Source of the DNA: Candidatus Dormiibacterota bacterium
GTDB taxonomy: Bacteria; Chloroflexota; Dormibacteria; Dormibacterales; Dormibacteraceae
NCBI GenBank assembly: GCA_035934385.1
Contig: DASYXY010000030.1
Span: 374-64,373 of the forward strand
DNA: 64,000 bases
Direction of reading: 5' to 3'
Shown here: one piece after another, positions 1,427 to 49,689 of the stretch
How the letters are laid out: every line of letters begins with the position of its first letter
How positions within the stretch are numbered: position 1 is the first letter of the stretch
Translations under genes and position numbers: made by a program
Notes under the pieces: model-generated
Told to the model about the DNA's origin: nothing
Seen by the model: the letters and a program-made list of their open reading frames with translations, nothing else
Database searches by the model: none

Positions 1427-1497
1427 TAGCGATTGGAGGAATAGCAGAACCCTGAATTTGACCGAGGTAGCGTCCCATACCGTTTAAGGAGCTAAGG

Positions 1498-2031
1498 ATC
1501 AACGATCAGATCCGCAGCTCCGAGGTGCGGCTGATCGATGACCAGAACAACCAGCTTGGCGTGCTTTCTCTGGACGCCGCGCTGCGCATCGCCAACGAGA
1601 AGGGATTGGACCTCGTCGAGGTGGCGCCGCAAGCGAACCCGCCGGTCTGCCGCCTGATGGACTACGGACGATTCAAGTTCGAGACCGTCAAGCGAGAGAA
1701 GGACCAGCGACGCAAGCAGAACGTCATCAAGCTCAAGGAGATGAAGCTGCGGCCGAAGGTGGCCGAGCACGATTTCCAGACCAAGTTCAAAGGGCTCAGG
1801 CAGTTCCTCGAAGCAGGCGAGAAGGTAAAGGTGACGATTATGTTCAGGGGCCGCGAGATGGTGCATCAGGACATCGGCCGCAAGATCCTCGAGAGGGTCG
1901 CCGATGACGCGCGCTCATTTGCGGTGATCGAGCGGCAGCCGCTGCTCGAGGGCAAGAACCTGTTCATGATCCTCGCGCCGAGCCGGCAGGGCGCGGTCGC
2001 TGTGCCGAAGGAGTCAGCCACCAGTGCCTAA
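1498..2031 (+). CDS. infC: translation initiation factor IF-3, probable non-canonical ATC start
   Basis: The ORF-track product (from GTG 1525) begins inside the conserved IF-3 N-terminus. The in-frame upstream sequence reads INDQIRSSEVRLIDDQNNQLGV..., which matches the IF-3 N-terminus. The frame opens after TAG 1468-1470. ATC 1498 lies 6 nt after AAGGAG (1486-1491). There is no ATG/GTG/TTG in between. Confidence 0.9.
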   Translation: MNDQIRSSEVRLIDDQNNQLGVLSLDAALRIANEKGLDLVEVAPQANPPVCRLMDYGRFKFETVKREKDQRRKQNVIKLKEMKLRPKVAEHDFQTKFKGLRQFLEAGEKVKVTIMFRGREMVHQDIGRKILERVADDARSFAVIERQPLLEGKNLFMILAPSRQGAVAVPKESATSA

Positions 2032-2579: not shown

Positions 2580-3315
2580 TCAGCCGCTAATCAGCAGCCC
2601 GGACAACGAGGTCGTCCGCCGGTTGCGGCGCCTCGCGTCCCGGCGCGAGCCAGGTCTCGCCCTCCTGGAAGGTCCGCGCGTGCTCAGGGAGGCGAAAGCG
2701 GCGGGGCTGGAGTTCGAGCTGATCGCGGTCCGTGAAGGCGGCAAGCTCCCATTTCATTCCGAGTCGCGGGTCACGCTCACAGCGGCGGCCTATCGTGCCG
2801 CCACCCAGACGGTCACGCCACAGGGCGTGATGGCCGTCGCCCACGTGCACGAAGCGTCCGCGGCTGAAGCGGTTACGGCTGCGCGCAGCGCGAGCTGGCC
2901 TCTGGTCGTGCTCGACCGCGTGCAGGACCCTGGCAACGTGGGCGCGATCTGCCGCACCGCCGCAGCCGCGGGAGCGCCGGCGCTTGCGGTGCTGAGCGGC
3001 ACGGCTGATCCTTTCGGCGCCAAGGCCGTGCGCGCGTCGGCCGGCAACGTGTTCAGGCTGGTGGTCGCGCGGGCGGCCTGGTCCGACCTCGTCGATCTCG
3101 TCGGCTACGGCGCCGCGTCGAGCGGCGGGGCGACGCTCGCGGCCGCACCCGTGGAAAATGCGGCCATGATCGTGTTCGGCAGCGAGGCGCACGGTCTGTC
3201 GCGGGGTGACCTGAAGCTGGTCACGATTCCGGTGGGTCGTGGCGTCGAATCACTGAACGTTGCGGCCGCGGCCGCGGTGATCCTGTTCGAGATCGCGCGC
3301 AGGAAGGCCGCATGA
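2542..3315 (+). CDS. TrmH/SpoU-family RNA 2'-O-methyltransferase (start uncertain)
   Basis: It has an N-terminal [15 protein letters not shown] substrate-binding-type segment and a C-terminal SPOUT motif ([10 protein letters not shown]...[22 protein letters not shown]). TTG 2542 overlaps rplT by 38 nt. Confidence 0.8.
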
Positions 3316-4343: not shown

Positions 4344-6719
4344 ATGCGCATCTCCTACGAGTGGCTGGGCGAATACGTCGACACTAAGGGGCTGAGTCCC
4401 GTGGAGGCAGCCGACTTCCTGACGATGTCCGGCACCAAGATCGAGTCGGTCCAGGTCATCGATCTGTCAGCGATCATCGTTGGCCGCGTGCTCGAGCAGA
4501 AGGACCACCCGAGCTCGAACAAGCCGCTCTGGATCCACCAGGTCGAGGTCGGCGGGGGCAAGGTGATCCAGATCATCGCCGGCGCTCCGAACGCTGTGGC
4601 CGGAACGCTCGTGCCCGTAGCGCTTCCAGGCACGCGGGTGCCGAGCGGCACTCTCGTCCGCGACGCCAAGATCGCGGGCCAGGCGGGCCAGGGCATGCTG
4701 TGCTCCGCGGACGAGCTCCTGCTGGGCGAGGAGCGCGAGCCCAGGATCATGCTGCTCGACCGCGGCGAGCCAGGAGAATCGCTGGCCAAGTACATCCCGC
4801 CCGACGCGATCCTCGAGGCCGAGATCACACCCAACCGGCCCGACTGTCTCGGCCACATCGGCGTAGCCCGCGAGCTTGGTGCGGCGGCCGGCCGCGAGTT
4901 CAAAGCGAACTTCATGCCGCCGTACATCGAGGGCGTGCAGCCGCCGGCGAGCGAGCTCATCGACATCGCCATCGAAGTCCCTGACCTGTGCAGTCGTTTC
5001 GTCGCGGTTCCAGTGACCGGGTTGAAGGTCGGGCCGAGCCCCGACTGGGTTCAGCGCCGCCTGCGCGCCGCCGGCGTGCGACCTATCAGCAATGTCGTCG
5101 ACGCCACCGCCTACGTGATGCTCGAACACGCCAAGCCGACGCACGTGTTCGACGCCGCAAAGCTGGCGGGCAAGCAGCTTCATGTACGCGAAGCGCGTGA
5201 CGGCGAATCCCTGCTGTGCCTCGATGGGCAGACGCGAAAGGTCGGCCCCGGCATGCTCGTGGTCGCCGACGCCAAGGGTCCGGTTGCCATCGGAGGGATC
5301 ATCGGCGGCGAGGAGAGCGGCGTCTCCGAAAGCACCACCGACGTGGTCATCGAGTCGGCCGGATGGAACGGCGTCAACATTCGCGCCACCTCGCGGGCCC
5401 TCGGCCTGCGCACCGAGGCCTCACTCCGCCACGAGAAGGGCCTTGCACCGGAGATGGCGATGGCGGCCGCCCGCCGCGCCGCGGCGCTGGTGCGCGATTG
5501 GGCCGGCGGGAAGGTGCACGCAGACTGGGTCGACGTCTACCCGCGGCCGCAGGAGCCGGTTCGCATCCAGCTCGAACCGCAGAAGATCGACGGTCTGCTG
5601 GGCGTCCGGGTTCCACCCGACGAATCGCAGCGCATCCTTCGCGACCTCGACTTCCAGGTTCGCGACGACGATGGGACGTGGGATGTGCTGCCCCCGGTGT
5701 TCCGTGTCGACGTGGAACTCCCGGAGGACGTCGTCGAGGAGGTGGGGCGCATCTACGGCATCACCCGCATCCCGGCCACGCTGCCTGGCTCACGGCACAC
5801 CAGTTGGAACATCGCGCCGGCCGAGGACAACCACTGGATGCTGCGCGAGGTGCTACTTGGTGCGGGCTTCGACGAGGTGGTCACGCCGGCGCTCGTCTCG
5901 CACCGGTCCCTGCAGCGGCTTGGCCTCGCGGAAGGTGCGCGGACGCTGTTCAACCCGATGAGCGACGAGATGGACTCGATGAGGACCTCGCTGCTCCCTT
6001 CCTTGCTCTCAGTGGCTCGTTACAACCAGAACAGGATTTCGGAACGGGTTGACGTGTTCGAGCTCGCGCGGGTTTATCGCGGCAGCCGTGCGGACGGGCT
6101 TGCCGACGAACAGATCCACCTGACAGCTCTCGCGCGGGTCGACTCTGCCGCGGATGCAGGGAGACGTGGGTTTCTGCGTTTGAAGTCGGCGATGGACCGC
6201 TTGGCGCAGGACCTCGTCGCCGGCACCGTGCGTTACCTGCGCGAGGCGCCGCACCTGTATCACCCGGGCCGGACGGCGTCGATCGTGGTTGGCGGCAAGG
6301 CGATCGGTGTCGTAGGCGAGCTTCATCCGTCAACGCTGGCCGTGTTCGACCTGGACGGCCGCGCGGTGGCGCTCGACGTCGATGTCGAGGCGCTGATCGC
6401 AGCACGCGGCGACCGCAAGGCCACCGAGCTGCCCCGCTTCCCCGCGATCCAGCGCGACATCGCGGTCGTGGTCGACATGAGCGTTACTGCCGGCGAGCTG
6501 CACCGCGCAATCAAAGAGTCAGCCGGCAACTCGCTGGAGAGCGTGCGCGCGTTCGACGAATACCGCGGCGACCAGGCCGGCGAGGGCCGCAAGAGCATCG
6601 CGTTCACCTTGACTTTCCGGAGCCCCGAGCGCACCCTGACGGACGCCGAAGTGGAGAGGGTGATGTCTGACGTCCGGAAACGGCTGGAGAAAAAGCACGG
6701 GGCCAGGTTCCGTTCATGA
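4344..6719 (+). CDS. pheT: phenylalanyl-tRNA synthetase beta subunit
   Basis: 791 aa. Starts MRISYEWLGEYVD, with B3/4, B5 and FDX-ACB-type C-terminal segments. It follows pheS directly. Confidence 0.95.
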   Translation: MRISYEWLGEYVDTKGLSPVEAADFLTMSGTKIESVQVIDLSAIIVGRVLEQKDHPSSNKPLWIHQVEVGGGKVIQIIAGAPNAVAGTLVPVALPGTRVPSGTLVRDAKIAGQAGQGMLCSADELLLGEEREPRIMLLDRGEPGESLAKYIPPDAILEAEITPNRPDCLGHIGVARELGAAAGREFKANFMPPYIEGVQPPASELIDIAIEVPDLCSRFVAVPVTGLKVGPSPDWVQRRLRAAGVRPISNVVDATAYVMLEHAKPTHVFDAAKLAGKQLHVREARDGESLLCLDGQTRKVGPGMLVVADAKGPVAIGGIIGGEESGVSESTTDVVIESAGWNGVNIRATSRALGLRTEASLRHEKGLAPEMAMAAARRAAALVRDWAGGKVHADWVDVYPRPQEPVRIQLEPQKIDGLLGVRVPPDESQRILRDLDFQVRDDDGTWDVLPPVFRVDVELPEDVVEEVGRIYGITRIPATLPGSRHTSWNIAPAEDNHWMLREVLLGAGFDEVVTPALVSHRSLQRLGLAEGARTLFNPMSDEMDSMRTSLLPSLLSVARYNQNRISERVDVFELARVYRGSRADGLADEQIHLTALARVDSAADAGRRGFLRLKSAMDRLAQDLVAGTVRYLREAPHLYHPGRTASIVVGGKAIGVVGELHPSTLAVFDLDGRAVALDVDVEALIAARGDRKATELPRFPAIQRDIAVVVDMSVTAGELHRAIKESAGNSLESVRAFDEYRGDQAGEGRKSIAFTLTFRSPERTLTDAEVERVMSDVRKRLEKKHGARFRS

Positions 6720-7267
6720 CCTGGGTCGACATCCTGCCGCTGGCCTTGATCGTCATCTACGGCGTCCTCGGCCTCTTCACCGGCGTGCTTCGGCGGGTCA
6801 TCGGGTTGATTGCCGTCTACATCGGCTGCATCGCCGCGACAGGCATGGGGCTGCAGGCCGCAAACATCATCCAGCAGGCGTCCACCACGGAGCTGCCTGA
6901 CGCGCGCATCTACGGGTTCTTCGGTCTGCTGCTCGTCGTCCTGCTGGCGGTCGACGGCGCCGCGCAGCTGGCACATCGCCAGATCCAGATCGAGGCGATC
7001 GTCTGGAACCGCGTCTCAGGCGTGCTGGTCGGCATCCTCACAGCGGTGCTGCTGTCGGTGGTCGTCACCTATGAGCTGCAGGCGGCGGGGCACCCCAGCG
7101 GCGGCGGTCAGCTCGCAGGCACCCAGGCGCAGATCCGAGCCGCCGTCGACGGATCAAAGATCGCCGTCCCGCTCGTCAACTCGCTGGGCCGGCCGATAAT
7201 CGCGGTGTTCCAGCCCGCGCTCCCGTTCGACCCGCACCAGTACTTCAGCCGCGGGATAGTAAGCTAG
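6716..7267 (+). CDS. CvpA-family membrane protein
   Basis: 183 aa, four hydrophobic spans, N-terminus MTWVDILPLALIVIYGVLGLFTGVLRR is typical of the CvpA family. ATGA overlap with pheT. Confidence 0.6.
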   Translation: MTWVDILPLALIVIYGVLGLFTGVLRRVIGLIAVYIGCIAATGMGLQAANIIQQASTTELPDARIYGFFGLLLVVLLAVDGAAQLAHRQIQIEAIVWNRVSGVLVGILTAVLLSVVVTYELQAAGHPSGGGQLAGTQAQIRAAVDGSKIAVPLVNSLGRPIIAVFQPALPFDPHQYFSRGIVS

Positions 7268-7308
7268 CGCCCGCTCTGTCTTTCTTCGAAGACCTGCGCG
7301 AGCGCGCG

Positions 7309-8430
7309 GTGGAGATCCACGTCGAGGACCATCTGCGTGCGCGGCTCGAGCGCGGCGACCACCTGCGCGTCAAGCTCGGGCTCGACCCGACGGCGCCCGA
7401 CATCCATGTCGGACACCTTGTGGTCCTGGACATCCTGCGCGCGTTCCAGGATCACGGGCATACGGTGGTCCTCATCGTCGGCGACTTCACCGCGATGATC
7501 GGCGACCCGAGCGGGCGCTCGGAGACGCGGCCGATCCTCACACGCGAACAGGTCGACGCGAACGCGAAGACCTATTTCGATCAGATCTTCCTGGTGCTCG
7601 ACCGCGACAAGACGGAGGTCCACGGCAATGCCGAGTGGCTCGGGGAGCTGAGCTCCGCCGACGTGCTGCGCCTGCTCGGCAAGGCGACGCTGCAACAGGT
7701 GCTGCAGCGAGAGGATTTCGCCCAGCGCTTGAAGGAAGGCGCGGCCATCGGCGCGCACGAGATCCTCTATCCGTTCAACCAGGCATACGACTCAGTGGCC
7801 GTCCGGGCCGACGTCGAGATCGGCGGCACCGATCAGCTCTTCAACCTGCTGTTCGGCCGCGAGATCCAGAAGGCCTACGGACAGGAGCCGCAGGACATCG
7901 CGGTCTTTCCGCTTCTCGAAGGGCTCGACGGCGAGCAGAAGATGTCGAAGTCGCTCGGGAACTACATCGGCGTGAGCGAAGCGCCGGAGCAGATCTATGG
8001 CAAGACGATGTCCATCCCGGACCGCCTTCTGGAGAAGTACGTGAGGCTGACGTCAGGACTTCAGCATCCCGAGATGAACGCGATGCTCGGGCTGAAGCCT
8101 CGAGATGCCAAGGCGGCGCTGGCTCGCCGTCTCGTGCAGAGGCTGCACGGGGAGGCAGCCGCCGCACACGCCGAACAGGACTTCGAGACAAAGTTCCGGC
8201 GCCGCGAGGTGCCGGAGGATGTGGCCGAACGCAGCGTCGCGGACCTCGAGGACCTGCCAGGCGCTCTGGTGGAAGCGGGGCTGGCGCGCAGCCGAGGCGA
8301 TGCACGGCGTCTCATCGACCAGGGCGGCGTTCGCGTGAACGGAGAGAAGATCGGGCTCGACTGGAAGCTGCGCGACGGCGATGTCGTCCAGGCAGGTAAG
8401 AGAAACTTCGTTCGAATCCGGAAGCGATAG
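7309..8430 (+). CDS. tyrS: tyrosyl-tRNA synthetase (true start may lie a few codons upstream)
   Basis: HVGH (HIGH) and KMSKS motifs plus a C-terminal S4-like domain. The in-frame upstream residues LSFFEDLRERAVEI still resemble the TyrRS N-terminus, but the only start-like codon there is CTG 7276. Confidence 0.9.
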   Translation: MEIHVEDHLRARLERGDHLRVKLGLDPTAPDIHVGHLVVLDILRAFQDHGHTVVLIVGDFTAMIGDPSGRSETRPILTREQVDANAKTYFDQIFLVLDRDKTEVHGNAEWLGELSSADVLRLLGKATLQQVLQREDFAQRLKEGAAIGAHEILYPFNQAYDSVAVRADVEIGGTDQLFNLLFGREIQKAYGQEPQDIAVFPLLEGLDGEQKMSKSLGNYIGVSEAPEQIYGKTMSIPDRLLEKYVRLTSGLQHPEMNAMLGLKPRDAKAALARRLVQRLHGEAAAAHAEQDFETKFRRREVPEDVAERSVADLEDLPGALVEAGLARSRGDARRLIDQGGVRVNGEKIGLDWKLRDGDVVQAGKRNFVRIRKR

Positions 8431-9373: not shown

Positions 9374-9865
9374 ATGCCATCTGACGGGCTGATCGTCGGC
9401 ATCGACCCAGGGCTCGCCGGCACCGGCTTCGCCCTGCTCGCCGAGCCCAACCGCGTGGTGGCCTGCGGCACTGTCTCGACCATCCCCGGCCGCGAGGGCC
9501 CCCGCCTCGTCGCCATCGCGAATCATCTCAGGGCCCTGATCACCGAACACCATCCCTCGGAGGCGTCACTCGAAGAGTTGTTCATGGGTCGCAACGCCAC
9601 GAGCGCGATCGGTGTCGCGCAGGCCCGCGGCGCGATCCTGGCCGTGCTCGAGGAGTGCCACGTTCCGGTGTTCGAGTACAAACCTTCGCAGGTGAAGATC
9701 GTGCTCACCGGCTACGGCAAGGCCGACAAGTCGCAGATCCAGCGCATGCTCGCGGCGCAGGTGCAACTGCCGGCGGGGAAGTTGGACGAGCACGCGCGCG
9801 ATGCGATCGCCATCGCGGTCTGTCATGCAAGAAGCCGGAAGTTCAACGGTGCGCGCGCGCATTGA
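9374..9865 (+). CDS. ruvC: Holliday junction resolvase RuvC
   Basis: IVGIDPGLAGTGFALL..., EELF, and DAIAIAVCHA catalytic-acid motifs. Confidence 0.9.
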   Translation: MPSDGLIVGIDPGLAGTGFALLAEPNRVVACGTVSTIPGREGPRLVAIANHLRALITEHHPSEASLEELFMGRNATSAIGVAQARGAILAVLEECHVPVFEYKPSQVKIVLTGYGKADKSQIQRMLAAQVQLPAGKLDEHARDAIAIAVCHARSRKFNGARAH

Positions 9866-18151: not shown

Positions 18152-18580
18152 ATGACCAGCTACCGCACCGACCAGGTCGGCGAGCAGGTGCGTGAGGAGA
18201 TCATGTCGATCATCAGGCGCGACCTGAAGGATCCTCGCATCGGCTTCGTCAGCATCACCGCGGTCCGCATGTCGCCGGACCTTCGGCAGGCGCGCGTCCG
18301 CGTCAGCGTGCTTGGTGATCCGGACCAGAAGAAGGCGTCGCTGCAGGGTTTGATCTCGGCCAAGGGCCTCATCCGTCACGAGCTGGGGCGGCGGCTCGAG
18401 AACCTGAAGTTCTCGCCAGAGCTGCGATTCGAGCTGGACCCGTCGATCGAGTACAGCGCCCACATCAACGAGCTGCTCAAGGCAGTCCTACCCGCGACTG
18501 AGGGTTCGGATCCGGGGTCCCCACGAAATCTCGGCGGAGCCTCCGATTTCGTGGGGGACTCTGAGGGGGAGCAGACATAG
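18152..18580 (+). CDS. rbfA: ribosome-binding factor A
   Basis: ATG 18152 follows GGAGG (18143-18147). RTDQVGEQVREEIMSIIRRDLKDPRIGFVSIT is typical RbfA. Confidence 0.9.
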   Translation: MTSYRTDQVGEQVREEIMSIIRRDLKDPRIGFVSITAVRMSPDLRQARVRVSVLGDPDQKKASLQGLISAKGLIRHELGRRLENLKFSPELRFELDPSIEYSAHINELLKAVLPATEGSDPGSPRNLGGASDFVGDSEGEQT

Positions 18581-19581
18581 CCACCGCCCAGAGCGAGACC
18601 GGCGGTCTCTACGACCAGATCAAGGAGCTCATCGACTCCAACGACGAGATCCTGATCTTCGGCCACAAGGACGCCGACGGCGACACGCTGGGCTGCAGCC
18701 TCGCTTTCGCGGAGGCGCTGCGCACCGCGGGCAAGCACGTATGGGTGCTCATCCCGCACCCGCTCCCCGACATGTACTCGTTCCTACCGGGATTCGACGA
18801 CATCCACGAGGGCCCGCCGAGCGGTGTCGAGCCGCAGCTCGTTTTCTTCTTCGACTCCGGGAACCTGGAGCGCTCCGGCTCCACCGTAAAGCACATCGCC
18901 TCGAAGGCGACCATCGTCAACATCGACCATCACCCGTCGAACTCGCGCTTCGGCGACGTCAACGTCATCGATCCCGACGCTTCGGCGGTCGGGCAGATGG
19001 TGATGGACATGCTCGACCACTACGGCTACCGGATCACTCCGACGATCGCGACCAACCTCTACGTCGCGCTCCTCACCGACACCGGCGGCTTCCGTCACGA
19101 GAACACAACGGTGCGCGCGCTCGAGGACGCGGCGCGGCTCGCTAGCCTCGGTGCCGACCCCGGCCACATCGCGACCATGGTCTACAAGATGCGGCCCGAG
19201 ACGACCCTCAAGCTGAGCGGCATGGCCCTCGCCACGATGCGAGTCGAGATGCACGGCCGGCTGGCATGGGCCAAGGTGACGCGGCGCATGCTGCGCGAGG
19301 CGAACGCGGTCATGGCTGAGTCCGAAGGCATCATCGACACGCTCAACTCGATCGCCGGCCTGGAGCTCGCGATTCTATTCAAAGAGGTGCAGAGCGACCT
19401 GACAAAGATCAGCGTGCGCAGTCGCGGCGCGGTCGACGCCGCGGCGATGTGCGCGCTGTTTGGAGGCGGAGGACACATCCGCGCCGCGGGCGCCGAGATC
19501 GACAAGTCCATGGACGAAACGGTGAAGGTCGTTCTGGCCACGGCCAAGGAGGCGATCCTTGCCGCCTCAGTCAAGGCCTGA
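18577..19581 (+). CDS. nrnA: DHH/DHHA1 phosphoesterase (NrnA-like oligoribonuclease/pAp phosphatase), non-canonical start
   Basis: DHH motif I (ILIFGHKDADGDTLGCS) lies upstream of the first canonical start (GTG 18745). The frame opens at 18565. ATA 18577 overlaps the rbfA stop as ATAG. DHH, GGGH motifs lie downstream. Confidence 0.8.
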   Translation: MATAQSETGGLYDQIKELIDSNDEILIFGHKDADGDTLGCSLAFAEALRTAGKHVWVLIPHPLPDMYSFLPGFDDIHEGPPSGVEPQLVFFFDSGNLERSGSTVKHIASKATIVNIDHHPSNSRFGDVNVIDPDASAVGQMVMDMLDHYGYRITPTIATNLYVALLTDTGGFRHENTTVRALEDAARLASLGADPGHIATMVYKMRPETTLKLSGMALATMRVEMHGRLAWAKVTRRMLREANAVMAESEGIIDTLNSIAGLELAILFKEVQSDLTKISVRSRGAVDAAAMCALFGGGGHIRAAGAEIDKSMDETVKVVLATAKEAILAASVKA

Positions 19582-20467
19582 ACGCTTCGCCTCGGGGGTC
19601 CTCAACGTCGACAAGGCCGCCGGTGAGACTTCCTTTTCGGTGGTGCGGCACCTTCGCCGGCTGACAGGCGCCCACCGTGTCGGTCATGCCGGCACCCTCG
19701 ATCCGCTCGCCACGGGCGTGCTCCCGATCCTCTTCGAGTCGGCCACGCGTCTTGCCGATTTCGCGCTGCAGCTGCCGAAGACATACGTCGCCGACATCCA
19801 TTTCGGCTTCACCACCGCGACCGACGACGCCGAGAGTGAGCGTCGGGCCGTGGGTGACGCAAGCATGCTCTCGGAAGTCGACGTCGAGAAAGGCCTGTCC
19901 GCGTTTTGCGGACGCATCATGCAGGAGCCGCCCGCCTTCTCGGCCGTGAAGGTCGAGGGCCGGCGCGCGTACAAGCTTGCTCGGCGAGGCGAGGAGCCGA
20001 AACCGAAGGCGCGCGAGGTCGAAGTGTATGAGGCGAACCTGCTGGCCTTCACGCCAGGGTCGGAGCCGGTGGCTCGCGTCCAGATCCGCTGCGGAAGCGG
20101 TACCTATCTCCGGTCAATCGCCCGTGACCTGGGCCGCATGCTCGGAGTGGGAGGCTATCTCGGTCGCCTGGTACGCACTGCGTACGGTCCGCTCGAGATC
20201 TCAGCGTCCGTGAGGCTCGACGCCCTCGGCGGCGCGGAGGATGTGCGCGATCGACTCTTGCCGGCCGAGGTCATACTGCCCGAGATGCAGCCGGTGCGGT
20301 TGAACGTCGAGCAGGAGGCGATGGTTCGACAGGGCCGCGCGGTGCGCGTGCTGCCCGAACCCGGCCCGGGCCGCCTGCGCGCCCACGATGCAGGCGGACG
20401 GCTGATCGCTCTCGGCCACACCGATCCGTTGCGGCGCACCTTCGTGCCGGAAAAGGTGTTGTCCTGA
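19559..20467 (+). CDS. truB: tRNA pseudouridine-55 synthase TruB
   Basis: GVLNVDKAAGETSFSVV...GHAGTLDPLATGVLPI catalytic Asp motif. Confidence 0.9.
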   Translation: MPPQSRPERFASGVLNVDKAAGETSFSVVRHLRRLTGAHRVGHAGTLDPLATGVLPILFESATRLADFALQLPKTYVADIHFGFTTATDDAESERRAVGDASMLSEVDVEKGLSAFCGRIMQEPPAFSAVKVEGRRAYKLARRGEEPKPKAREVEVYEANLLAFTPGSEPVARVQIRCGSGTYLRSIARDLGRMLGVGGYLGRLVRTAYGPLEISASVRLDALGGAEDVRDRLLPAEVILPEMQPVRLNVEQEAMVRQGRAVRVLPEPGPGRLRAHDAGGRLIALGHTDPLRRTFVPEKVLS

Positions 20468-21369
20468 AGACACATCTCGGGCTGCCGGTCAGCCACATCG
20501 GTCCGGTCACGATCACAGTCGGCAGCTTCGACGGCGTGCACCTCGGACACGCCGATGTCATCCGCCGCCTGGTCGCCGCCGCTGTGGACTCTGCCGCCGC
20601 TCCCGCGCTCGTCACGTTCGAGCCGCATCCGCGCTGCGTGCTCGACCCCGCGAACTGTCCCCAGTCGATCACCACGCTGCAGGAGAAGCTGGCGCTCCTC
20701 GAGGCAGCCGGCATCGAGCATGCGATTGTTCTGCGATTCGACCGTGCGCTTGCGAGCCTGAGCCCTCAGGAGTTCGTCGACATGCTCGGCTCGCGCATGG
20801 AGATCAAGCGTTGGGTGATCGGCTTCGACTTCGCTTTTGGCAATCAGCGCAAGGGCAACGCGGGATGGCTGCGGGAGCACGGTCATGACGTGGACGTCGT
20901 TCCGCCTTTCGCGTTCGAAGAAAAGGCTCTGCACAGCTCTGATATCAGGCGTCTCATCAACACGGGCGATGTGCATGAAGCCAACCGGTTGCTCGGCCGT
21001 GAGTACGCGATGGCCGGACCCGTCGAGGCCGGCGATCGCGTAGGACGGCGCCTCGGCTTTCCGACCGCCAACATCGCTGTCGAGCCGAACAAGCTGATCC
21101 CGGCCCTGGGTGCCTACGCGGGCCGGGCGGTCACGGATGGAAAGGAATTCGTCGCCGCGCTCTCGGTAGGGTACCGGCCGACCTTTGGCGGGACGCAGCT
21201 CCGAGTTGAGGCCTTCCTTCTCGATTTCGAAGGCGACCTCTATCAGCGCCGCCTCGAGCTGCGTTTTATCCACTACTTGCACCCGGACATCAGGTTCGAC
21301 AGCCCCTCGGAGCTGGTGGTGCAGCTCAAGCGCGACGTGGCCGAAACCCGTCGGATCGTTCGTCAGTGA
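20464..21369 (+). CDS. ribF: bifunctional riboflavin kinase / FMN adenylyltransferase, non-canonical CTG start
   Basis: The nucleotidyltransferase motif GSFDGVHLGH is cut by the first canonical start (GTG 20536 is the V of that motif). The in-frame upstream sequence reads KTHLGLPVSHIGPVTITVGSFDG. CTG 20464 overlaps the truB stop as CTGA. Confidence 0.9.
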   Translation: MKTHLGLPVSHIGPVTITVGSFDGVHLGHADVIRRLVAAAVDSAAAPALVTFEPHPRCVLDPANCPQSITTLQEKLALLEAAGIEHAIVLRFDRALASLSPQEFVDMLGSRMEIKRWVIGFDFAFGNQRKGNAGWLREHGHDVDVVPPFAFEEKALHSSDIRRLINTGDVHEANRLLGREYAMAGPVEAGDRVGRRLGFPTANIAVEPNKLIPALGAYAGRAVTDGKEFVAALSVGYRPTFGGTQLRVEAFLLDFEGDLYQRRLELRFIHYLHPDIRFDSPSELVVQLKRDVAETRRIVRQ

Positions 21370-26289: not shown

Positions 26290-26316
26290 ACTCGCCACGT
26301 ATAATTGCCGCTCGGT

Positions 26317-26586
26317 TTGGCAGAAGAGACGGAAGTCAAGGGCAAGATGATCGCCGAGTACAGGCGGTCTGAGAAGGACACCGGTTCCCCCGAGGTCCAG
26401 ATCGCGCTATCCAACGCGCGCATCAGGGAGCTCACCGAGCACCTGAAGACTCACGCCAAGGACCACCACTCTCGCCGCGGCCTCCTGCTCCTGGTTGGCA
26501 AGCAACGGCGTCTGCTGAACTACCTGAGGGACATCGACGTGGAGCGCTATCGCGCTCTCGTCGGCAAGCTCGGGATCAGGAGATAA
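26317..26586 (+). CDS. rpsO: 30S ribosomal protein S15 (alternative start TTG 26305)
   Basis: [37 protein letters not shown]...LGIRR. TTG 26317 gives the canonical 89-aa length. Confidence 0.9.
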
Positions 26587-26747: not shown

Positions 26748-28985
26748 GTGTCGATAACAACAAAGAATGTCGAGGTCGCCGGTCGGCGGCTGTCGATCGA
26801 GACCGGCCGGGTGGCCGAACAGGCGAACGGAGCCGTGATCGTTCGCCAGGGCGACTCCGTCGTCCTGAGCACGGTGGTGATGTCGAAGGAGCCTCGGGAA
26901 GGCATCGACTTCTTCCCGCTCACGTGCGATTACGAGGAGAAGCTGTACGCAGCCGGCAAGATCCCCGGCGCGTTCATGCGCCGCGAGGGGAGGCCAAGCG
27001 AGACCGCGATCCTCGCCTCGCGGCTGACCGATCGGCCGCTGCGGCCACTGTTTCCCGATGGCTTTCGCCTCGACATCCAGGTCGTTTCAACCGTGCTTTC
27101 GGTTGACCAGGAGAACGACCCCACCATCCTGTCGATCAACGGAGCCTCGACGGCGATCGTCATCTCGGACGTGCCGTGGTCCGGGCCGGTAGGCGCTGTC
27201 CGCATGGGCCTGCTCGACGGTCACGTGGTGGTGAACCCGCCCATGTCCCGGATGGCCGAATCAGAGCTCGATCTGGTGGTTGCCGGCACGGCGGACGCCA
27301 TCCTGATGGTCGAGGCAGGCGCCAAGGGTGTCAGCGAGCAGACCGTGCTCGAAGCGCTCGAGATGGCGCACGAGGCGATCAAGCAGATCTGCGCCGCCCA
27401 GCTCGAGCTGCGCGAGCAGGTCGGCAAGCCGAAGCGAGACTACGCGCCCAACGAGTATCCAGAGCATGCGGTCGAGGTGGTCAACGAGTACCTCGCCCTC
27501 CGCCTGGACGCAGCGGCGTTCGGTCCCGACAAGGCGGCCCGTGAGGCCAGCACCGATCAGCTGCGGAAGCAGATGATGGCCGACCTTGGCGCGCGATTCC
27601 CGGACTACGCCGACATCCTGGGCAAGCTCTTCGACAAGAAGCTCAAGGACCGCGTCCGCGAGCGCATCGTCGAGGAAGGCGTGCGCATGGATGGCCGCGG
27701 CCTGAAGGACGTGCGTCAAATCACCGTCGAGGTTGGCGTCTTGCCGCGCACGCATGGCTCTGGCCTGTTCACGCGGGGGCAGACCCAGGCGCTGACGATC
27801 GCCACGCTCGGCTCGATGTCCGACCAGCAGAAGCTCGATGGCCTGACCCTGGCCGACGAGTTCAAGCGCTACATGCACCACTACAACTTCCCGCCGTTCT
27901 CCGTAGGCGAGGCGCGACCTCTGCGCGGCCCAGGCCGCCGGGAGATCGGGCATGGCGCCTTGGCTGAGCGCGCGCTGCTGCCTGTCATCCCGCCTGTGGA
28001 GGAGTGGCCCTACACCATGAGGCTCGTGTCCGAGATCCTCAGCTCAAACGGTTCCACGTCGATGGCGTCCGTGTGCGGATCGACCCTCGCGCTGATGGAC
28101 GCGGGCGTGCCCATCAAGTCGCCTGTCGCCGGGATCGCGATGGGCCTGGTCACGCGTGGGGGCAAGCATGCGGTGCTCACTGACATCCAGGGTGTCGAAG
28201 ACAACCTGGGCGACATGGACTTCAAGGTCGCTGGCACTCGCGACGGCATCACAGCCCTACAGATGGACATCAAGATCAAAGGCCTGACGCACGAGATCCT
28301 CGCGCAGGCCCTCGATCAAGCACGCGAGGCGAGGCTCTTTGTGCTCGACAAGATGCTGGCGGTGCTTCCGCGGCCGCGCACCGAGATGAGCGCTTACGCA
28401 CCGCGCATCACGACCATCATGATCAACCCCGACAAGATCCGCGACGTCATCGGCCCCGGAGGCAAGATGATCCGCAAGATCACCGAGGAGACCGGTGCGC
28501 AGATCGATGTTGAGGACGACGGCCGCGTGTTCATCGCCGCCGTCGACCAGGTGGCGGGACAGCGCGCGATCGACTGGATCAAAGGCCTGACCGATGAGGT
28601 CGAGGTCGGCAAGATCTACCAGGGCAAGGTCGTGCGCATCATGGCCTTCGGTGCATTCGTCGAGGTGCTGCCCGGCCAGGACGGACTCGTGCACATCTCC
28701 AAGCTCACCGACCACCGCGTCGAACGCGTGGAAGAGGTCTGCAACGTCGGCGACGAGATCGTGGTGAAGGCGGTCGAGATCGACAGCCAGGGCAGGCTGA
28801 ACCTCAGCCGCCAGGCCGCGATCGAAGAGCTCACCGCGCAGGGCCTGCCGATCAACGAAAAGATCAACCCCGAGGTCATGGCCGCAGCGCTGGCTTTGCC
28901 GCCGGCCCCGCGGGAACGCAGCTTCGGCGGACGCGACCGGGGCGGTCGCAACGGTGGCGGCCGGAGCCGAGGTAGGCGAGACTAG
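26748..28985 (+). CDS. pnp: polynucleotide phosphorylase
   Basis: Two RNase PH domains, KH and S1. Glycine/arginine-rich tail. Confidence 0.95.
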   Translation: MSITTKNVEVAGRRLSIETGRVAEQANGAVIVRQGDSVVLSTVVMSKEPREGIDFFPLTCDYEEKLYAAGKIPGAFMRREGRPSETAILASRLTDRPLRPLFPDGFRLDIQVVSTVLSVDQENDPTILSINGASTAIVISDVPWSGPVGAVRMGLLDGHVVVNPPMSRMAESELDLVVAGTADAILMVEAGAKGVSEQTVLEALEMAHEAIKQICAAQLELREQVGKPKRDYAPNEYPEHAVEVVNEYLALRLDAAAFGPDKAAREASTDQLRKQMMADLGARFPDYADILGKLFDKKLKDRVRERIVEEGVRMDGRGLKDVRQITVEVGVLPRTHGSGLFTRGQTQALTIATLGSMSDQQKLDGLTLADEFKRYMHHYNFPPFSVGEARPLRGPGRREIGHGALAERALLPVIPPVEEWPYTMRLVSEILSSNGSTSMASVCGSTLALMDAGVPIKSPVAGIAMGLVTRGGKHAVLTDIQGVEDNLGDMDFKVAGTRDGITALQMDIKIKGLTHEILAQALDQAREARLFVLDKMLAVLPRPRTEMSAYAPRITTIMINPDKIRDVIGPGGKMIRKITEETGAQIDVEDDGRVFIAAVDQVAGQRAIDWIKGLTDEVEVGKIYQGKVVRIMAFGAFVEVLPGQDGLVHISKLTDHRVERVEEVCNVGDEIVVKAVEIDSQGRLNLSRQAAIEELTAQGLPINEKINPEVMAAALALPPAPRERSFGGRDRGGRNGGGRSRGRRD

Positions 28986-28992
28986 ACAGCAA

Positions 28993-29742
28993 ATGGGCGG
29001 GCAGATCCGGGTCGCGGTGGCAGGACACCGCGGCCGGGTCGGCTCGGTGCTCGTCCCGGTCCTGCAAGACGAGCCCGGCATCGAGTACGTCGGCGGGATA
29101 GGGCGCGGCGACAACCTCGCCGACTTCCTCAAGGAAAGGCGGCCTCGGGTGCTCGTGGACTTCACGAAGCCCGCTGAGGCTTTGCACATCGCCCTGGCGG
29201 CTGTCGCGGCCGGAGCCTCGCCGGTCGTAGGCACCACCGGCATCCCGGCCGAGGGGGTCGACAAGCTCGAGACCGCGTGCAAAGACAAAGGCCTGGGCGG
29301 GATCGTGGCGCCCAACTTCGCGATCGGCGCCGTGCTGATGATGCACCTCGCCGAGATCGCGGCGCCTCACTTCGAGGCGGTCGAGATCATCGAGATGCAT
29401 CACGCGGGAAAGCTCGACGCGCCATCGGGCACCGCGCTCTCCACCGCCCGGCGGCTGGCGTCGAAGCGCGGTGAGAAACCGTTCGCGCACCGCAAACCCG
29501 AAAAGGAAACGCTCGCCGGCACACGAGGCGGGGAGGAGGGCAACGTCGCTGTGCACAGCGTGCGTCTGCCCGGCTTCGTCGCCGACCAGGAGGTCATCTT
29601 CGGCCTCCCCGGCCAGACCATGACCATCGCCCACAGGACTACGAGTCGCGAGGCTTATGCACCCGGAGTGCTGCTGGCGATTCGCCGCGTGGTTGAATCA
29701 CGACGCTTCTATCGAGGCCTGGACCAGCTGCTGGGGCTTTAA
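28993..29742 (+). CDS. dapB: 4-hydroxy-tetrahydrodipicolinate reductase
   Basis: ATG 28993 gives MGGQIRVAVAGHRGRVG.... EIIEMHHAGKLDAPSGTA motif. Confidence 0.9.
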   Translation: MGGQIRVAVAGHRGRVGSVLVPVLQDEPGIEYVGGIGRGDNLADFLKERRPRVLVDFTKPAEALHIALAAVAAGASPVVGTTGIPAEGVDKLETACKDKGLGGIVAPNFAIGAVLMMHLAEIAAPHFEAVEIIEMHHAGKLDAPSGTALSTARRLASKRGEKPFAHRKPEKETLAGTRGGEEGNVAVHSVRLPGFVADQEVIFGLPGQTMTIAHRTTSREAYAPGVLLAIRRVVESRRFYRGLDQLLGL

Positions 29743-32368: not shown

Positions 32369-32420
32369 TCACCCCACGAACTCCGAGCCTGCGGCTGCGA
32401 GTTCACGGGGACCCCGTGAA

Positions 32421-44001: not shown

Positions 44002-44286
44002 ATGTCAGCGGAAGGGCGCGCTCCGGTGGAGGTGCTGAAGGTGTCAGCCACCTCCAAGCCGGTTGCCGTGGCCGGCGCCATCGCTGGGGTGATCCGCAGC
44101 AAGGGCAGGGTCGAGGTCCAGGCCATCGGCGCAGGCGCGATCAACCAGGCGGTCAAGGCGATCGCCATCTCCCGCGGCTACGTCGCTCCTGGCGGCCTCG
44201 ACCTGGTGTGCATCCCCGCCTTCATCGACATCTCGATCGACGGAGAGGAGCGCACCGGAATCCGTCTACTGGTGGAGAGCCGATAA
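44002..44286 (+). CDS. spoVS: SpoVS-family protein
   Basis: ATG 44002 gives MSAEGRAPVEVLKVSATSKPVAVAGAIAGVIR...QAIGAGAINQAVKAIAI. Confidence 0.9.
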   Translation: MSAEGRAPVEVLKVSATSKPVAVAGAIAGVIRSKGRVEVQAIGAGAINQAVKAIAISRGYVAPGGLDLVCIPAFIDISIDGEERTGIRLLVESR

Positions 44287-45551
44287 TCCGAGCGAGGTCG
44301 TTCCACATCTGGACCATCGGGTGCCAGATGAACACCGCGGACTCCGAAAGCATCGCGCGGAAGCTGCTCGCAGCGGGCTACGTCGAGGACTCGCTGGAGC
44401 GCGCCGACATCGCGATCCTCAACACCTGCGTGGTGCGGCAGGCGTCAGAGGAGCGCGTCTATTCCAAGCTCCACGAGCTGAGGCAGTGGAAGACGCCCGA
44501 GCGAACGATCGCAGTCACCGGGTGCATCGTGGGCAAGGAAGGTGAGCATCTGCGGAAGCGATTCCCGCTGATCGACGCCGTTGTTCCCATTGGCGGGTAC
44601 GACGGCTTCATCGCTGGCCTGCAGTCGCGCTATGACTGGTCGCTGGGCGAGTCTCTGCCTTCGGCCGGCCGGACAGGCGTGAGCCACTTTGTCAGGATCA
44701 TCCAGGGCTGCGACCACAACTGCACGTTCTGCATCGTTCCGAAGGTTCGCGGCCGCGAGCGGCACGTACCGATGGCCGCGGTGCTGGCCGAAAGCAGCCA
44801 GGCCATTGTCGACGGCGCACGAGAGATCGTCCTGCTCGGTCAGAACGTCGACGACTACCGTGACCCCGACGGCCGCGGCGGGATGGCGGCGCTCGTGCGT
44901 GAGGTGGAGCGGCTGCCGGGTCTGAAGCGCCTTCGCTTCATGACGTCGCACCCGCAGGATCTCGAGGCTGAGCTGCTGGAGGTCATGGCAGCGAGCAACG
45001 TCGTGTGCCGCGAGTTGCAGTTGCCCGTCCAGTCAGGCGACGACCTGATCCTCCGCCGCATGGCGCGCGGTTACCAGACGCGCCACTACCACGCGATCAT
45101 CGAGCGCGCTCGCGCGTTGATGCCTGACATCGGGCTCGCGACCGACGTGATCGTCGGCTTTCCGGGTGAAACCGAAGCCGCCTTTCAGAACACACGGAGA
45201 TTGCTCGAGGACATCGAGTTCGACGTCGTGCACCTCGCGATGTATTCGCCGCGACCGGGCACGTACGCCGCGACGAAGATGCCCGACGACGTGCCCGATG
45301 CCGAGAAGCTGCGAAGGCTCAACGACCTGCTAGCGCTGCAGCGCGAGATCGCCGCGCGCAAGACCGCACGCTGGGTCGGGCGCGAGGTCGAAGTCCTTGT
45401 CGAAGGACGCGACGAGCTGGGCCGGGCGTACGGACGCATCCGGCAGGGCAAGCGCGCCGTCGTGCTCGGCAACGCCGAACCTGGAACCCTGGTCGACATC
45501 CGCGTGATCCAGGCGACGGCGGGTCAGCTGATGGGTGCTCGAGCGGCGTGA
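44283..45551 (+). CDS. miaB: tRNA-i6A37 methylthiotransferase MiaB (start either ATA/ATC 44283/44286 or ATG 44208)
   Basis: FHIWTIGCQMNTADSE, radical-SAM CDHNCTFC, TRAM domain. ATG 44208 would overlap spoVS by 79 nt. ATA 44283 overlaps the spoVS stop as ATAA and gives a typical-length N-terminus. Confidence 0.9.
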   Translation: MIRARSFHIWTIGCQMNTADSESIARKLLAAGYVEDSLERADIAILNTCVVRQASEERVYSKLHELRQWKTPERTIAVTGCIVGKEGEHLRKRFPLIDAVVPIGGYDGFIAGLQSRYDWSLGESLPSAGRTGVSHFVRIIQGCDHNCTFCIVPKVRGRERHVPMAAVLAESSQAIVDGAREIVLLGQNVDDYRDPDGRGGMAALVREVERLPGLKRLRFMTSHPQDLEAELLEVMAASNVVCRELQLPVQSGDDLILRRMARGYQTRHYHAIIERARALMPDIGLATDVIVGFPGETEAAFQNTRRLLEDIEFDVVHLAMYSPRPGTYAATKMPDDVPDAEKLRRLNDLLALQREIAARKTARWVGREVEVLVEGRDELGRAYGRIRQGKRAVVLGNAEPGTLVDIRVIQATAGQLMGARAA

Positions 45552-48028: not shown

Positions 48029-49689
48029 TGAGCCGAATCCAGCAGCTGCCGCAGGAGGTCGCGGACGCGATCGCCGCCGGTGAGGTGATCGAGCGACCGG
48101 CATCTGTGGTGAAAGAGCTGATCGAGAACGCCCTGGACGCGGATGCACTCCGCATCACGGTCGACGTGCGCGGTGCGGGGCGGACATCGATCCGCGTCAA
48201 CGACGACGGTTCCGGCATCGCGGCGCCCGAGCTCGAGCTCGCCTTCCTTCGTCACGCGACCAGCAAGGTCGCCACGCTGCCCGACCTGGCCGCGATCACC
48301 ACGCTCGGGTTTCGAGGCGAGGCGCTCGCGAGCATCGCCGCGGTCGCCGACGTCGAATGCGCGAGCGGCGGCTCGCGCATCCACATTCGCGCCGGTGAGG
48401 TGATTGAGAAAGGCGCGGGACCCCTGCTGCCCGGCGTCAACATCGAGGTCAGAGACCTGTTCGCCAACGTTCCCGCCCGGCTGAAGTTCCTGAAGTCCGA
48501 CGCGACCGAGGTCGCGGCGATCAGGGACACGGTGTCGTCATACGCGCTGCTTCACCCGCATGTGAAGTTCCAGCTCACGATCGACGGCCGGTCGGCGCTC
48601 AGCACATCAGGAGATGGAGACAGGCGTCGCGCGTCAGCCGCGGTGCACGGCGGCGCGGTGGCGGCGGAGATGCTCGAGATCGTCGGTCTGCCGCTGATCA
48701 AGGGCATCGTCTCGCAGCCGCGCGTGAGTCGCGGCAGCCGGGATTGGATTGTCCTGGCGGTGAATGCGCGCCCCATCGCGTCGCGGACGCTCCTGTACGC
48801 GCTCGAGGAGTGCTACCAGGGACGCCTCGAGCGAGGCCGCCACCCAGTGGCGGTGCTCGACATCGGCATCGACCCCGAGTTGGTTGACGTCAACGTGCAC
48901 CCGGCCAAGCGCGAGGTCCGGTTTCGAGACGAGAACGCGGTGTTCGCCGCGGTCCAGCGAGCTGTGCGCGCCGCGCTGGGTGGCAGCGAGCCGTTCTTCT
49001 ACCGCCCCCCGGCGGCGGCGGCGGCGATGATGAGTACGTTCAGCGTTGGCGGCGGTCAGACACCCGCTGCGCTCTCCGGCGTGGCCGTGCAGGACGTGGT
49101 GACGCGCGAGGCTCCCACCGAGGCGCCGCTGCGACCGCTGGGCCAGATCGGCGAGGGCTACATCGTGGCCGAAGGCGCGCAAGGGCTCGTGCTCGTGGAT
49201 CAGCACGCTGCTCATGAGCGCATCCTCTACAACCGGCTGGTCGCGCGACTGCGTGATGGAAGAGGCATGACGCAGCCGCTCCTCATGCCCGCCGCGATCG
49301 ACGTCGAGCCGGCCTTGATGGCGGCCGCGGCGGACCACGCCAGCGAGCTGGCGGCGCTTGGCCTGGAGCTGGAAGAGTTCGGGCCGCGCAGTCTGCGCAT
49401 CACGTCGATTCCCACCGAGATGCCGGTGAGCCGCGCCACCAAGGCCGTGCAGGAGACGCTGGGGGCGCTCGCGGAGAATCGCTCCGACAACGCCATCCAG
49501 CAAGCTGCAGCCGAGCTCGCGTGCCACTCCGCAGTCCGGTTCGGTGACGTCCTGGACATGGCCGAGCAGCGCCGCCTTCTTACCGATCTGGAGCAGGCCG
49601 AGGATTCGATCACGTGTCCGCACGGTCGGCCCACGCGCTTGCTGGTGGACTGGCAGGAGCTGAAGCGGCACTTCCGGCGGAACTACTGA
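48028..49689 (+). CDS. mutL: DNA mismatch repair protein MutL
   Basis: IAAGEVIERPASVVKELIENALDA, GFRGEAL. The C-terminal domain has a CPHGRP motif. Confidence 0.9.
   Translation: MSRIQQLPQEVADAIAAGEVIERPASVVKELIENALDADALRITVDVRGAGRTSIRVNDDGSGIAAPELELAFLRHATSKVATLPDLAAITTLGFRGEALASIAAVADVECASGGSRIHIRAGEVIEKGAGPLLPGVNIEVRDLFANVPARLKFLKSDATEVAAIRDTVSSYALLHPHVKFQLTIDGRSALSTSGDGDRRRASAAVHGGAVAAEMLEIVGLPLIKGIVSQPRVSRGSRDWIVLAVNARPIASRTLLYALEECYQGRLERGRHPVAVLDIGIDPELVDVNVHPAKREVRFRDENAVFAAVQRAVRAALGGSEPFFYRPPAAAAAMMSTFSVGGGQTPAALSGVAVQDVVTREAPTEAPLRPLGQIGEGYIVAEGAQGLVLVDQHAAHERILYNRLVARLRDGRGMTQPLLMPAAIDVEPALMAAAADHASELAALGLELEEFGPRSLRITSIPTEMPVSRATKAVQETLGALAENRSDNAIQQAAAELACHSAVRFGDVLDMAEQRRLLTDLEQAEDSITCPHGRPTRLLVDWQELKRHFRRNY

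Follow-up and report, generated by a model that had tools for sequence, protein, structure and literature searches.

Candidate CTG and ATA start codons at overlapping gene junctions in Candidatus Dormibacterota

Genes and junctions of the window

In a stretch of 64,000 nucleotides from the genome of a Candidatus Dormibacterota bacterium (contig DASYXY010000030.1; the whole stretch is referred to below as the window), the genes ribF, miaA and hflX follow another gene on the same strand, and in each of them an in-frame CTG codon shares two bases with the upstream gene's TGA stop codon, forming the tetranucleotide CTGA at 20464–20467, 49686–49689 and 51738–51741. These coordinates, on which a first reading of the window (the initial annotation) had based the proposal that the three CTG codons are start codons, were all verified. 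Two further same-strand junctions of this register are formed by ATA codons, ATAG at 18577 (nrnA-like gene) and ATAA at 44283 (miaB), and in tyrS a candidate CTG is separated from the preceding stop by a gap of 8–9 nt. The ATA codons of nrnA, miaB and the translation initiation factor 3 (IF3) gene, infC, had been missed by the initial annotation. The coordinates of these features, together with the canonical overlaps used for comparison, are collected in Table 1.

The window has a GC content of about 66%, and the nearest homologues of its RibF and TyrS proteins carry the label Candidatus Dormibacterota/Dormibacteraeota or "Chloroflexi bacterium" and originate from soil metagenomes. The lineage is uncultured, and the evidence presented throughout is comparative. 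Gene identities were confirmed by family models, and in ribF, hflX and miaA the homology extends upstream of the first canonical codon (ATG, GTG or TTG). The DNA of relatives was obtained from three sources: (i) a genome scan with DapL, giving about 12 Dormibacterota loci (L001–L012); (ii) a metagenome scan with RibF, giving at least seven close loci (L081–L087), and (iii) individual homologue look-ups (L161–L172). All Dormibacterota loci were obtained by way of the flagged genes themselves. Additional start candidates were exposed by a scan for the onset of codon usage combined with family models over the window. Automated detection of the upstream stop misplaced some spacings in this high-GC DNA (ribF of L171 and L172, miaB of L008), and these were read by hand. 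Scanning the window for tRNAs and against Rfam gave no matches; it shows neither a variant initiator tRNA nor a riboswitch.

Table 1. Genes of the window with predicted non-canonical starts, followed by canonical 4-nt overlaps and a repeat element; residues and codons refer to the predicted start.
Feature	Coordinates	Strand	Junction and remarks
ribF (bifunctional riboflavin kinase/FAD synthetase)	20464–21369	+	predicted start CTG 20464–20466, overlapping truB TGA 20465–20467 (CTGA)
RibF, predicted N-terminal stretch			between CTG and first canonical codon: THLGLPVSHIGPVTITVGSFDGVHLGHADVIR
miaA (tRNA dimethylallyltransferase)	49686–50579	+	predicted start CTG 49686–49688, overlapping mutL TGA 49687–49689 (CTGA)
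hflX (GTPase HflX)	51738–53087	+	predicted start CTG 51738–51740, overlapping dapL TGA 51739–51741 (CTGA)
HflX, predicted N-terminal stretch			between CTG and first canonical codon: AYLVGIVLPGATEDVVR
nrnA-like DHH phosphoesterase	18577–19581	+	predicted start ATA 18577–18579, overlapping rbfA TAG 18578–18580 (ATAG)
NrnA, predicted N-terminus			ATAQSETGGLYDQIK
miaB (methylthiotransferase)	44283–45551	+	most likely start ATA 44283–44285, overlapping spoVS TAA 44284–44286 (ATAA)
infC (IF3)	1477–2031	+	predicted start ATA 1477; GAGGT ~9 nt upstream; no overlap with an upstream gene
tyrS (tyrosine-tRNA ligase)	7276–8430	+	probable start CTG 7276, 8–9 nt after cvpA TAG 7265–7267
pheS ATG 3312	3312–3315	+	canonical comparison, ATGA overlap with upstream stop; ATG or GTG in 6/6 relatives
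cvpA ATG 6716	6716–6719	+	canonical comparison, ATGA overlap with pheT stop; ATG, GTG or TTG in relatives
ruvA TTG 9862	9862–9865	+	canonical comparison, TTGA overlap with ruvC stop; TTG in 6/6
GlpB-like gene GTG 21366	21366–21369	+	canonical comparison, GTGA overlap with ribF stop; GTG, ATG or TTG in 12/12
mutS GTG 45548	45548–45551	+	canonical comparison, GTGA overlap with miaB stop
Palindromic element like repetitive extragenic palindromes (REP-like)	18517–18558		CCCCACGAAATC-N14-GATTTCGTGGGG, located in the 3′ tail of the rbfA open reading frame

Support for CTG as the start of ribF, miaA and hflX

A start of ribF at the CTG that overlaps the truB stop is strongly supported by the comparison with relatives. 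The reading frame is open from an in-frame stop at 20125 and contains no ATG, GTG or TTG before GTG 20536, which is the valine codon of the nucleotidyltransferase motif GSFDGVHLGH and splits it, as the initial annotation had pointed out. Position 2 of TIGR00083 aligns to residue 17, numbered from the CTG, with the NCBIfam and Pfam models starting at residues 11–17. The codon is CTG in 12 of 14 sequences (the window, L081–L086 and L166–L170), TTG in L171 and GTG in L172. The first canonical codon of L081 appears at +93, past the motif, and in L086 an in-frame stop is located at −30. The ratio of nonsynonymous to synonymous polymorphism (pN/pS) among the CTG-bearing genomes is 7.9 in the ten same-frame codons upstream of the CTG, 0.37 in the ten codons that follow it (codons 2–11; pS 0.56) and 0.38 in the next 50 codons. 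This onset of selection indicates that translation would begin at the CTG and not at the ATC found at +33. The context of the start differs among some of the relatives: in L167 the CTG is placed at +13 nt from the upstream stop and is accompanied by GGAG, in L171 the TTG follows a spacer of 52 nt, and in L166 an in-frame ATG at −39, with a spacer of 178 nt, yields the 314-amino-acid (aa) forms that begin with MGAEDP.

The protein records of RibF carry the signature of an unrecognised start, since the lengths called across 120 close relatives scatter over 277, 285–291, 297, 299, 301, 304, 314 and 397 aa. The most frequent call, of 301 aa (MKVHLGLP...), has its first residue at the codon homologous to the window CTG; extended calls carry leucine at that position and others are shortened to 277 aa. 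Among the many calls of 301 aa, the initial residue is M, V or L. The RibF of one relative (P0101) is printed as MKVH in its NCBI record while the corresponding DNA (L170) reads CTG at this codon, which implies that the NCBI pipeline had already called the ribF CTG as a start.

For miaA, the CTG overlapping the mutL stop is strongly supported as well. Position 1 of TIGR00174 aligns to residue 6, numbered from the CTG. Downstream, no canonical codon occurs before GTG 49779, which is located past the P-loop GPTGIGKT. The junction reads CTGA in nine of 13 sequences (the window, L001–L005, L008, L011 and L012) and TTGA in L009 and L010; L006 has a TTG after a TAG stop and L007 a GTG after a spacer. 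Because the C-terminal residue of MutL is tyrosine (TAC or TAT) in most of the genomes compared, the base that precedes the TGA is limited to C or T. The sole canonical codon upstream, GTG 49614, lies at a distance of 72 nt and would produce an overlap of 76 nt with mutL, as had been noted from the outset. This GTG arises from a conserved Thr-Cys pair of MutL (ACN TGY) and alternates among GTG, ATG and CTG in the relatives, in the way expected of a wobble base, and the intervening 24 codons up to the CTG show a pN/pS of 10.5 in the miaA frame and of 0.096 in the mutL frame. On these grounds a start of miaA at GTG 49614 was rejected.

The CTG on the dapL stop is likewise strongly supported as the start of hflX. 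Canonical codons first appear at GTG 51786, the valine codon of the conserved ERAYLVGIV, a sequence whose beginning upstream of that codon agrees with the initial description, and position 2 of TIGR03156 aligns to residue 11, numbered from the CTG. A CTG on the dapL stop is found in eight of 13 sequences, namely the window, L001–L004, L008, L010 and L009, in the last of which the overlapping CTG sits 18 nt further upstream. In L005, L006 and L007 this codon is an ATG, and dapL and hflX are separated there by a spacer of ~52–55 nt containing a palindromic repeat element; in L006 a TAA immediately precedes the ATG. The canonical alternatives are not conserved, the first one being at +75 in both L001 and L002. 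The pN/pS values are 1.19 in the upstream stretch, 0.34 in codons 2–16 and 0.40 in the downstream coding sequence. Hence, for the three genes, the proposal of CTG starts gains from relatives that have ATG, GTG or TTG at the same codon and from the onset of selection there; the alignments of orthologues, which the initial annotation had named as a check, place the conserved N-termini upstream of the downstream canonical codons, and those canonical codons are not conserved in the relatives.

Beyond the Dormibacterota, hflX of eight Dehalococcoidia loci (L022, L027, L034, L035, L036, L038, L046 and L058) begins with an ATA that is preceded at 5–8 nt by a strong GGAGG, and CTG is present in L053 where the related L057 has ATG. 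HflX is a ribosome-splitting GTPase, and the ATA of the Dehalococcoidia genes suggests that its non-AUG start predates the split between Dormibacterota and Dehalococcoidia. Judged from this distribution, the non-AUG start of hflX looks like a maintained feature that sets the level of expression. In another locus, L070 (about 11240), the place taken by ATA in the relative L022 reads ACA ACG in hflX; these would be weaker codons or an assembly error.

Further candidate starts in nrnA, infC, miaB and tyrS

In nrnA an in-frame stop is located at 18562 and the Shine-Dalgarno (SD) motif GGGGGAG (18565–18571) lies 5 nt upstream of the ATA, the first canonical codon being GTG 18745, which comes after the DHH motif FGHKDADGD. 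All 11 sequences retain the ATA together with its ATAG overlap and a motif of the GGAGG type, and codons 2–14 show a pN/pS of 0.49. The arrangement of infC is similar in that an in-frame stop (1468) is found 9 nt upstream of the ATA; position 3 of TIGR00168 aligns to the lysine encoded at 1486, and the first canonical codon, GTG 1525, falls inside the model. ATA is present in all five infC sequences and is identical in L162–L165. No canonical start was found at the homologous codon of nrnA (ATA in 11/11) or infC (ATA in 5/5), and with no canonical replacement in the relatives the support for these two starts rests on the in-frame stop and the SD motif.

The start of miaB is most likely the ATA overlapping the spoVS stop. 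Position 2 of TIGR00089 aligns six residues past this codon, and the open reading frame upstream is that of SpoVS. The spoVS/miaB junction of the relatives reads ATAA in L003, CTGA in L007 and L009, and GTGA in L008, and miaB of L003, L006 and L009 has no canonical codon upstream. At the L006 junction (about 3620) a GTA overlaps the TAA (GTAA), the other codons available being ACG and a late ATC; it would represent a weaker codon or an assembly error.

The weaker case is tyrS, as the initial annotation had rated it. Its first canonical codon is GTG 7309, and a start there would lose the SFFEDLRERA sequence conserved in 120 relatives. Almost all of these 120 proteins have 386 aa and begin with (M/L/V)TQSFF, their start codon being a TTG or GTG placed two codons (6 nt) upstream of the equivalent of the window CTG; a few, of 383–384 aa, begin at the homologous L-S-F-F. 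The cvpA-tyrS junction of the window is 6 nt shorter than that of the relatives and the TTG is absent from it, leaving CTG 7276 as the sole near-cognate codon that retains SFFEDLRERA. The start of the window tyrS is therefore probably CTG 7276, although an assembly error is here a plausible origin of the codon. In L162–L165, at a site listed as about 18 nt upstream of the tyrS start, an in-frame CTG overlaps the cvpA TGA (CTGA), 12 nt upstream of the called TTG or GTG, and tyrS may have two alternative initiation sites in these genomes.

A gene for a YegS-like kinase, which in the window begins with a canonical ATG (23871), begins at an ATAG overlap in L087, L167, L168, L170 and L172. In total, CTG and ATA starts would concern about seven of the ~58 genes of the window, roughly one in eight.

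The public gene calls treat these genes unevenly. NCBI records call ATA for nrnA (L161, 15862) and for the yegS-like gene (L167, 13680; L170) and CTG for ribF (L170), the positions in L170 being 10001 and 13425; elsewhere they choose for ribF the ATC at +33 or far-upstream ATGs. The JGI and ENA calls shorten these genes, NrnA, for example, being reduced to a 280-aa product with the DHHA1 domain only.

Control genes and expectation by chance

A single CTG overlapping a TGA is not improbable by itself, since any NTG before TGA in the matching register is a near-cognate codon and C is the commonest third-position base. It is the comparison among genomes that lifts the CTGA overlaps above chance. 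Twelve control genes of the window (pheS, cvpA, ruvA, ruvB, secF, rpmI, nusA, GlpB-like, glcD-like, ggt, mutS and mutL) are canonical (ATG, GTG or TTG) at the aligned start in every one of ~95 orthologues, and the first base of their 4-nt overlaps is A, G or T, never C, in spite of the prevalence of C at third positions. The canonical overlaps of pheS, cvpA, mutS and the GlpB-like gene, listed already in the initial annotation, are present, and further ones are found at ATG 34073 and, in two cases, on the minus strand. That the controls are always canonical, whereas CTG or ATA recurs in the genes described above, indicates that the identity of the start codon is under gene-specific selection. 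The CTG/ATA arrangement is, on this comparative basis, maintained across the lineage and specific to particular genes.

A screen for junctions in the register of a 4-nt overlap that lack a canonical start from −60 to +45 nt gave 21 of 109 in Dormibacterota, a figure biased upwards because the loci had been fetched by means of the flagged genes, and, for a contrast that is rough for the same reason, 6 of 185 in other phyla and 1 of 48 in other loci with at least 60% GC. Two candidates raised by the codon-usage onset scan were rejected. The first canonical codon of the dapB open reading frame (28954–29742), GTG 28954, overlaps pnp and is not the start according to the relatives, which show a conserved ATG 28993 and hence no need for a non-canonical codon; for secF the relatives show GTG 13198.

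Coupling to upstream termination and alternative explanations

The non-canonical starts of the Dormibacterota, infC excepted, are located at −4 or at no more than 14 nt from the upstream stop, and spacers of ~30–180 nt, mostly made of a palindromic repeat element, go together with a canonical start in five loci, the cases being hflX of L005–L007 (ATG), miaA of L007 (GTG), ribF of L171 (TTG) and ribF of L166 (ATG). The repeat has the consensus CCCCACGAA(A/C)TC - loop - GA(T/G)TTC(G/A)(T/C)GGGG. In the window, its insertion into the rbfA tail (Table 1) preserves the frame, and rbfA still terminates at the TAG overlapped by the ATA of nrnA; a related copy (32371–32412) is intergenic and lies ahead of an RNase J-like gene (ATG 32421). 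Like elements form the spacers of dapL/hflX in L005–L007, mutL/miaA in L007 and truB/ribF in L171, and each time the downstream start is canonical.

These data are consistent with termination-reinitiation coupling, and we consider it probable that the near-cognate CTG and ATA codons are genuine starts, that of tyrS with less assurance than the others, and that they are weak in themselves and are aided by coupling to termination of the upstream gene. In the model, the initiator fMet-tRNA would recognise the CTG and ATA codons as near-cognates of low strength. Termination upstream would leave a ribosome already placed at the overlapping start, often kept there by an SD-like motif within the final codons of the preceding gene. 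Expression would be low and tied to upstream-gene translation and, probably, to the level of IF3, and such a low, coupled output would suit low-abundance enzymes encoded behind more abundant partners. The choice between CTG and ATA would be set by the geometry of the 4-nt overlap, because TGA allows only CTG as a non-canonical NTG, and TAA or TAG allow only ATA.

Several observations weigh against this reading or against parts of it. The association between spacers and canonical starts amounts to ~3–4 independent events and is a correlation among related genomes. SD-like motifs are found ahead of most of the CTG and ATA starts, the ATA of infC has no upstream gene, and the distance from the Dehalococcoidia hflX ATA to the dapL stop takes values of −4, 0, +27, +43, +64 and +88 nt. 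The last two facts imply that near-cognate initiation is not strictly dependent on the overlap. In hflX, the near-cognate ATC 51741 directly follows the CTG in every sequence and may be the codon actually used; for ribF of two relatives (P0062 and P0110) NCBI chose the ATC at +33. The window miaB also has a GTG upstream, at 44208, and the CTG start of tyrS is seen in the window alone. Therefore, the part of the initial proposal according to which termination-reinitiation tolerates a near-cognate CTG agrees with the proximity of the starts to the stops and with the canonical starts behind spacers, and an exclusive role of coupling does not agree with the SD motifs, infC and the Dehalococcoidia hflX.

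The alternative that survives best, possible though clearly the less probable one, is that the starts are real and that the 30S subunit binds them de novo through SD pairing, the overlap being an incidental consequence of operon compaction. It accounts for the GGAG- or GGAGG-like motifs situated 5–11 nt upstream of nrnA, miaB, ribF and hflX, for the ATA of infC, which is served by an SD motif alone, and for the Dehalococcoidia hflX, whose ATA is preceded by GGAGG at spacings of up to +88 nt. However, no convincing SD motif precedes miaA and tyrS, and SD-driven initiation would leave aside that the Dormibacterota cases other than infC are all within 14 nt of the upstream stop whereas the loci with long spacers use canonical codons.

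It is unlikely that initiation takes place instead at a near-cognate codon a short distance downstream, ATC 20497 in ribF, ATC 51741 in hflX or ATC 1498 in infC. The RibF records of P0062 and P0110, of 291 and 290 aa with the I of IGPV as first residue, correspond to such a start, as does one NCBI call of IF3 with 177 aa, which matches an ATC at +21, and in hflX an ATC is always the codon next to the CTG. On the other hand, the stretch of ten codons that separates the CTG of ribF from the ATC at +33 is as constrained as the rest of the gene, with many synonymous changes, and the ATC position itself is GTG in L168 and not start-like in L166 and L167. In hflX, the ATG of the relatives occupies the CTG codon and not that of the ATC, and in infC the alignment to the IF3 model extends to the lysine three codons after the ATA.

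That the genes begin at canonical codons is very improbable, whether these are taken downstream, giving truncated products (GTG 20536, 51786 and 7309), or upstream (GTG 49614 for miaA and GTG 44208 for miaB). Gene callers limited to ATG, GTG and TTG do give such models, for example the 277 aa of P0001, and a tyrS beginning at GTG 7309 would lose its first helix only. However, GTG 20536 would split the nucleotidyltransferase motif and GTG 51786 would drop the conserved ERAYLVG; the canonical codons are not conserved, the first ones being displaced to +75 in hflX of L001 and L002 and to +93 in ribF of L081; the position at −72 of miaA varies as a mutL wobble and the extension has a pN/pS of 10.5; and the upstream codon of miaB is missing from L003, L006 and L009.

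Two explanations are of the lowest probability and were rejected. A sequencing or assembly error that turned ATG, GTG or TTG into CTG would be in keeping with the appearance of the window, which looks metagenome-assembled, and with a tyrS junction set apart from that of every relative by a 6-nt indel, and tyrS 7276 is the one codon for which it is plausible; the same CTG and ATA codons recur in many independent assemblies from different projects (L001–L012, L081–L087 and L161–L172). A programmed −1 frameshift at the stop, resulting in TruB-RibF, MutL-MiaA and DapL-HflX fusions, would fit the downstream frame, which is −1 relative to the upstream one at every CTGA, but the sequences before the stops (GTTGTCCTGA, GGAACTACTGA and TTCGTCTCTGA) share no slippery site, and the intergenic spacers of the relatives and the in-frame stop directly before the L006 hflX start imply that the downstream genes are translated independently.

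A wider extension of coupled near-cognate initiation would be that the Dormibacterota set formed by hflX, nrnA, ribF, miaA, miaB, the yegS-like kinase gene and infC constitutes a translational regulon that tracks IF3 and upstream ribosome traffic, hflX at least being shared with Chloroflexota relatives, and that the identity of the start codon at overlaps is perhaps looser still (GTA in miaB of L006, ACA/ACG in hflX of L070). We regard it as a rather doubtful extension. If it were true, the regulon would provide global control of a kind that suits dormancy or very slow growth. In comparison with E. coli IF3, the fidelity residues of the window IF3 are for the most part retained (R99, R131, R133 and E134), with the change Y75F and no clear sign of relaxed discrimination.

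Relation to known systems

The autoregulation of infC through an AUU, AUA or AUC start is an established paradigm in E. coli. The ATA of the window infC, preceded by an SD motif, conforms to it and suggests by analogy that IF3 would discriminate against near-cognate codons in this organism too. The remaining genes, ribF, miaA, miaB, hflX and nrnA, differ in that they are not known targets of IF3. An ATA start of infC has also been reported in Deinococcus-Thermus (PMC2830850).

CTG and ATH starts are known but rare: CTG is used for RepA of an E. coli plasmid, and in Deinococcus for rpsL and a folK-like gene, with ATC for dnaA (Baudet et al. 2010, PMC2830850). The starts described here resemble those of Deinococcus in that a CTG or ATH codon initiates a conserved housekeeping gene, is kept in relatives and places the N-terminus upstream of the first ATG, GTG or TTG. 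They differ in their density, with at least 6–7 genes in one 64-kb window, and in that most are located exactly on the upstream stop; moreover, the Deinococcus starts are backed by N-terminal proteomics, whereas those of the window are known from comparison alone.

The 4-nt NTGA overlap is the commonest motif of translational coupling (PMC12548453, PMC10666635; Huber et al. 2019, PMC6728339), and re-initiation in E. coli requires the formylated initiator tRNA (PMC2268962). The window junctions share with that class the two bases common to stop and start, the same-strand, operon-like arrays and a geometry kept in relatives. In the published surveys, however, N stands for A, G or T, and non-canonical codons are considered only a possible source of rare odd overlaps, whereas here N is C, with the addition of ATA on TAG or TAA, in a recurrent and conserved manner; the coupling itself is in our case predicted from the sequence. 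As to the strength of such codons, CUG, AUA, AUC and AUU are weak initiators in E. coli, at ~0.02–3% of AUG, with 1–2% also cited (Hecht et al., bioRxiv 10.1101/063800). These values fit a role in low expression, although they describe de novo initiation on reporters and neither stop-start overlaps nor this phylum. A report of non-canonical reinitiation in a eukaryotic oocyte system (PMC4648390) was set aside as irrelevant.

Our literature search found no paper pairing Dormibacterota with start codons, and in the coupling literature found, CTGA and ATAR overlaps are not treated as a recurrent class. Thus the components are known, and their combination, density and phylum-level conservation appear to be undescribed. 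Gene callers limited to ATG, GTG and TTG would mis-annotate these genes throughout the phylum, with corrupted protein families, pangenomes and metabolic reconstructions as the consequence for a soil lineage that is abundant and uncultured. Moreover, weak CTG or ATA initiation on a stop codon could be a stable, gene-specific and selected state, and these junctions would offer natural test cases for the relaxation of start-codon stringency during re-initiation.

Other features of the window

Some further observations concern the annotation and order of genes. For rpsO (26305–26586) the relatives place the start at TTG 26317 and not at TTG 26305. The open reading frame of NadE, a glutamine-dependent NAD+ synthase (60304–62613), contains ~190 extra N-terminal residues (60304–60870) with no Pfam match, and the NCBIfam NadE model begins at ~60871; a later start or a same-frame upstream gene are the alternatives.

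The order of genes between 45548 and 53087 is mutS-mutL-miaA-dapL-hflX. It is similar to that of the E. coli superoperon mutL-miaA-hfq-hflX, with dapL in the place of hfq. Upstream of mutS the window contains rny-ymdB-spoVS-miaB, a set of neighbours characteristic of Firmicutes and Chloroflexota.

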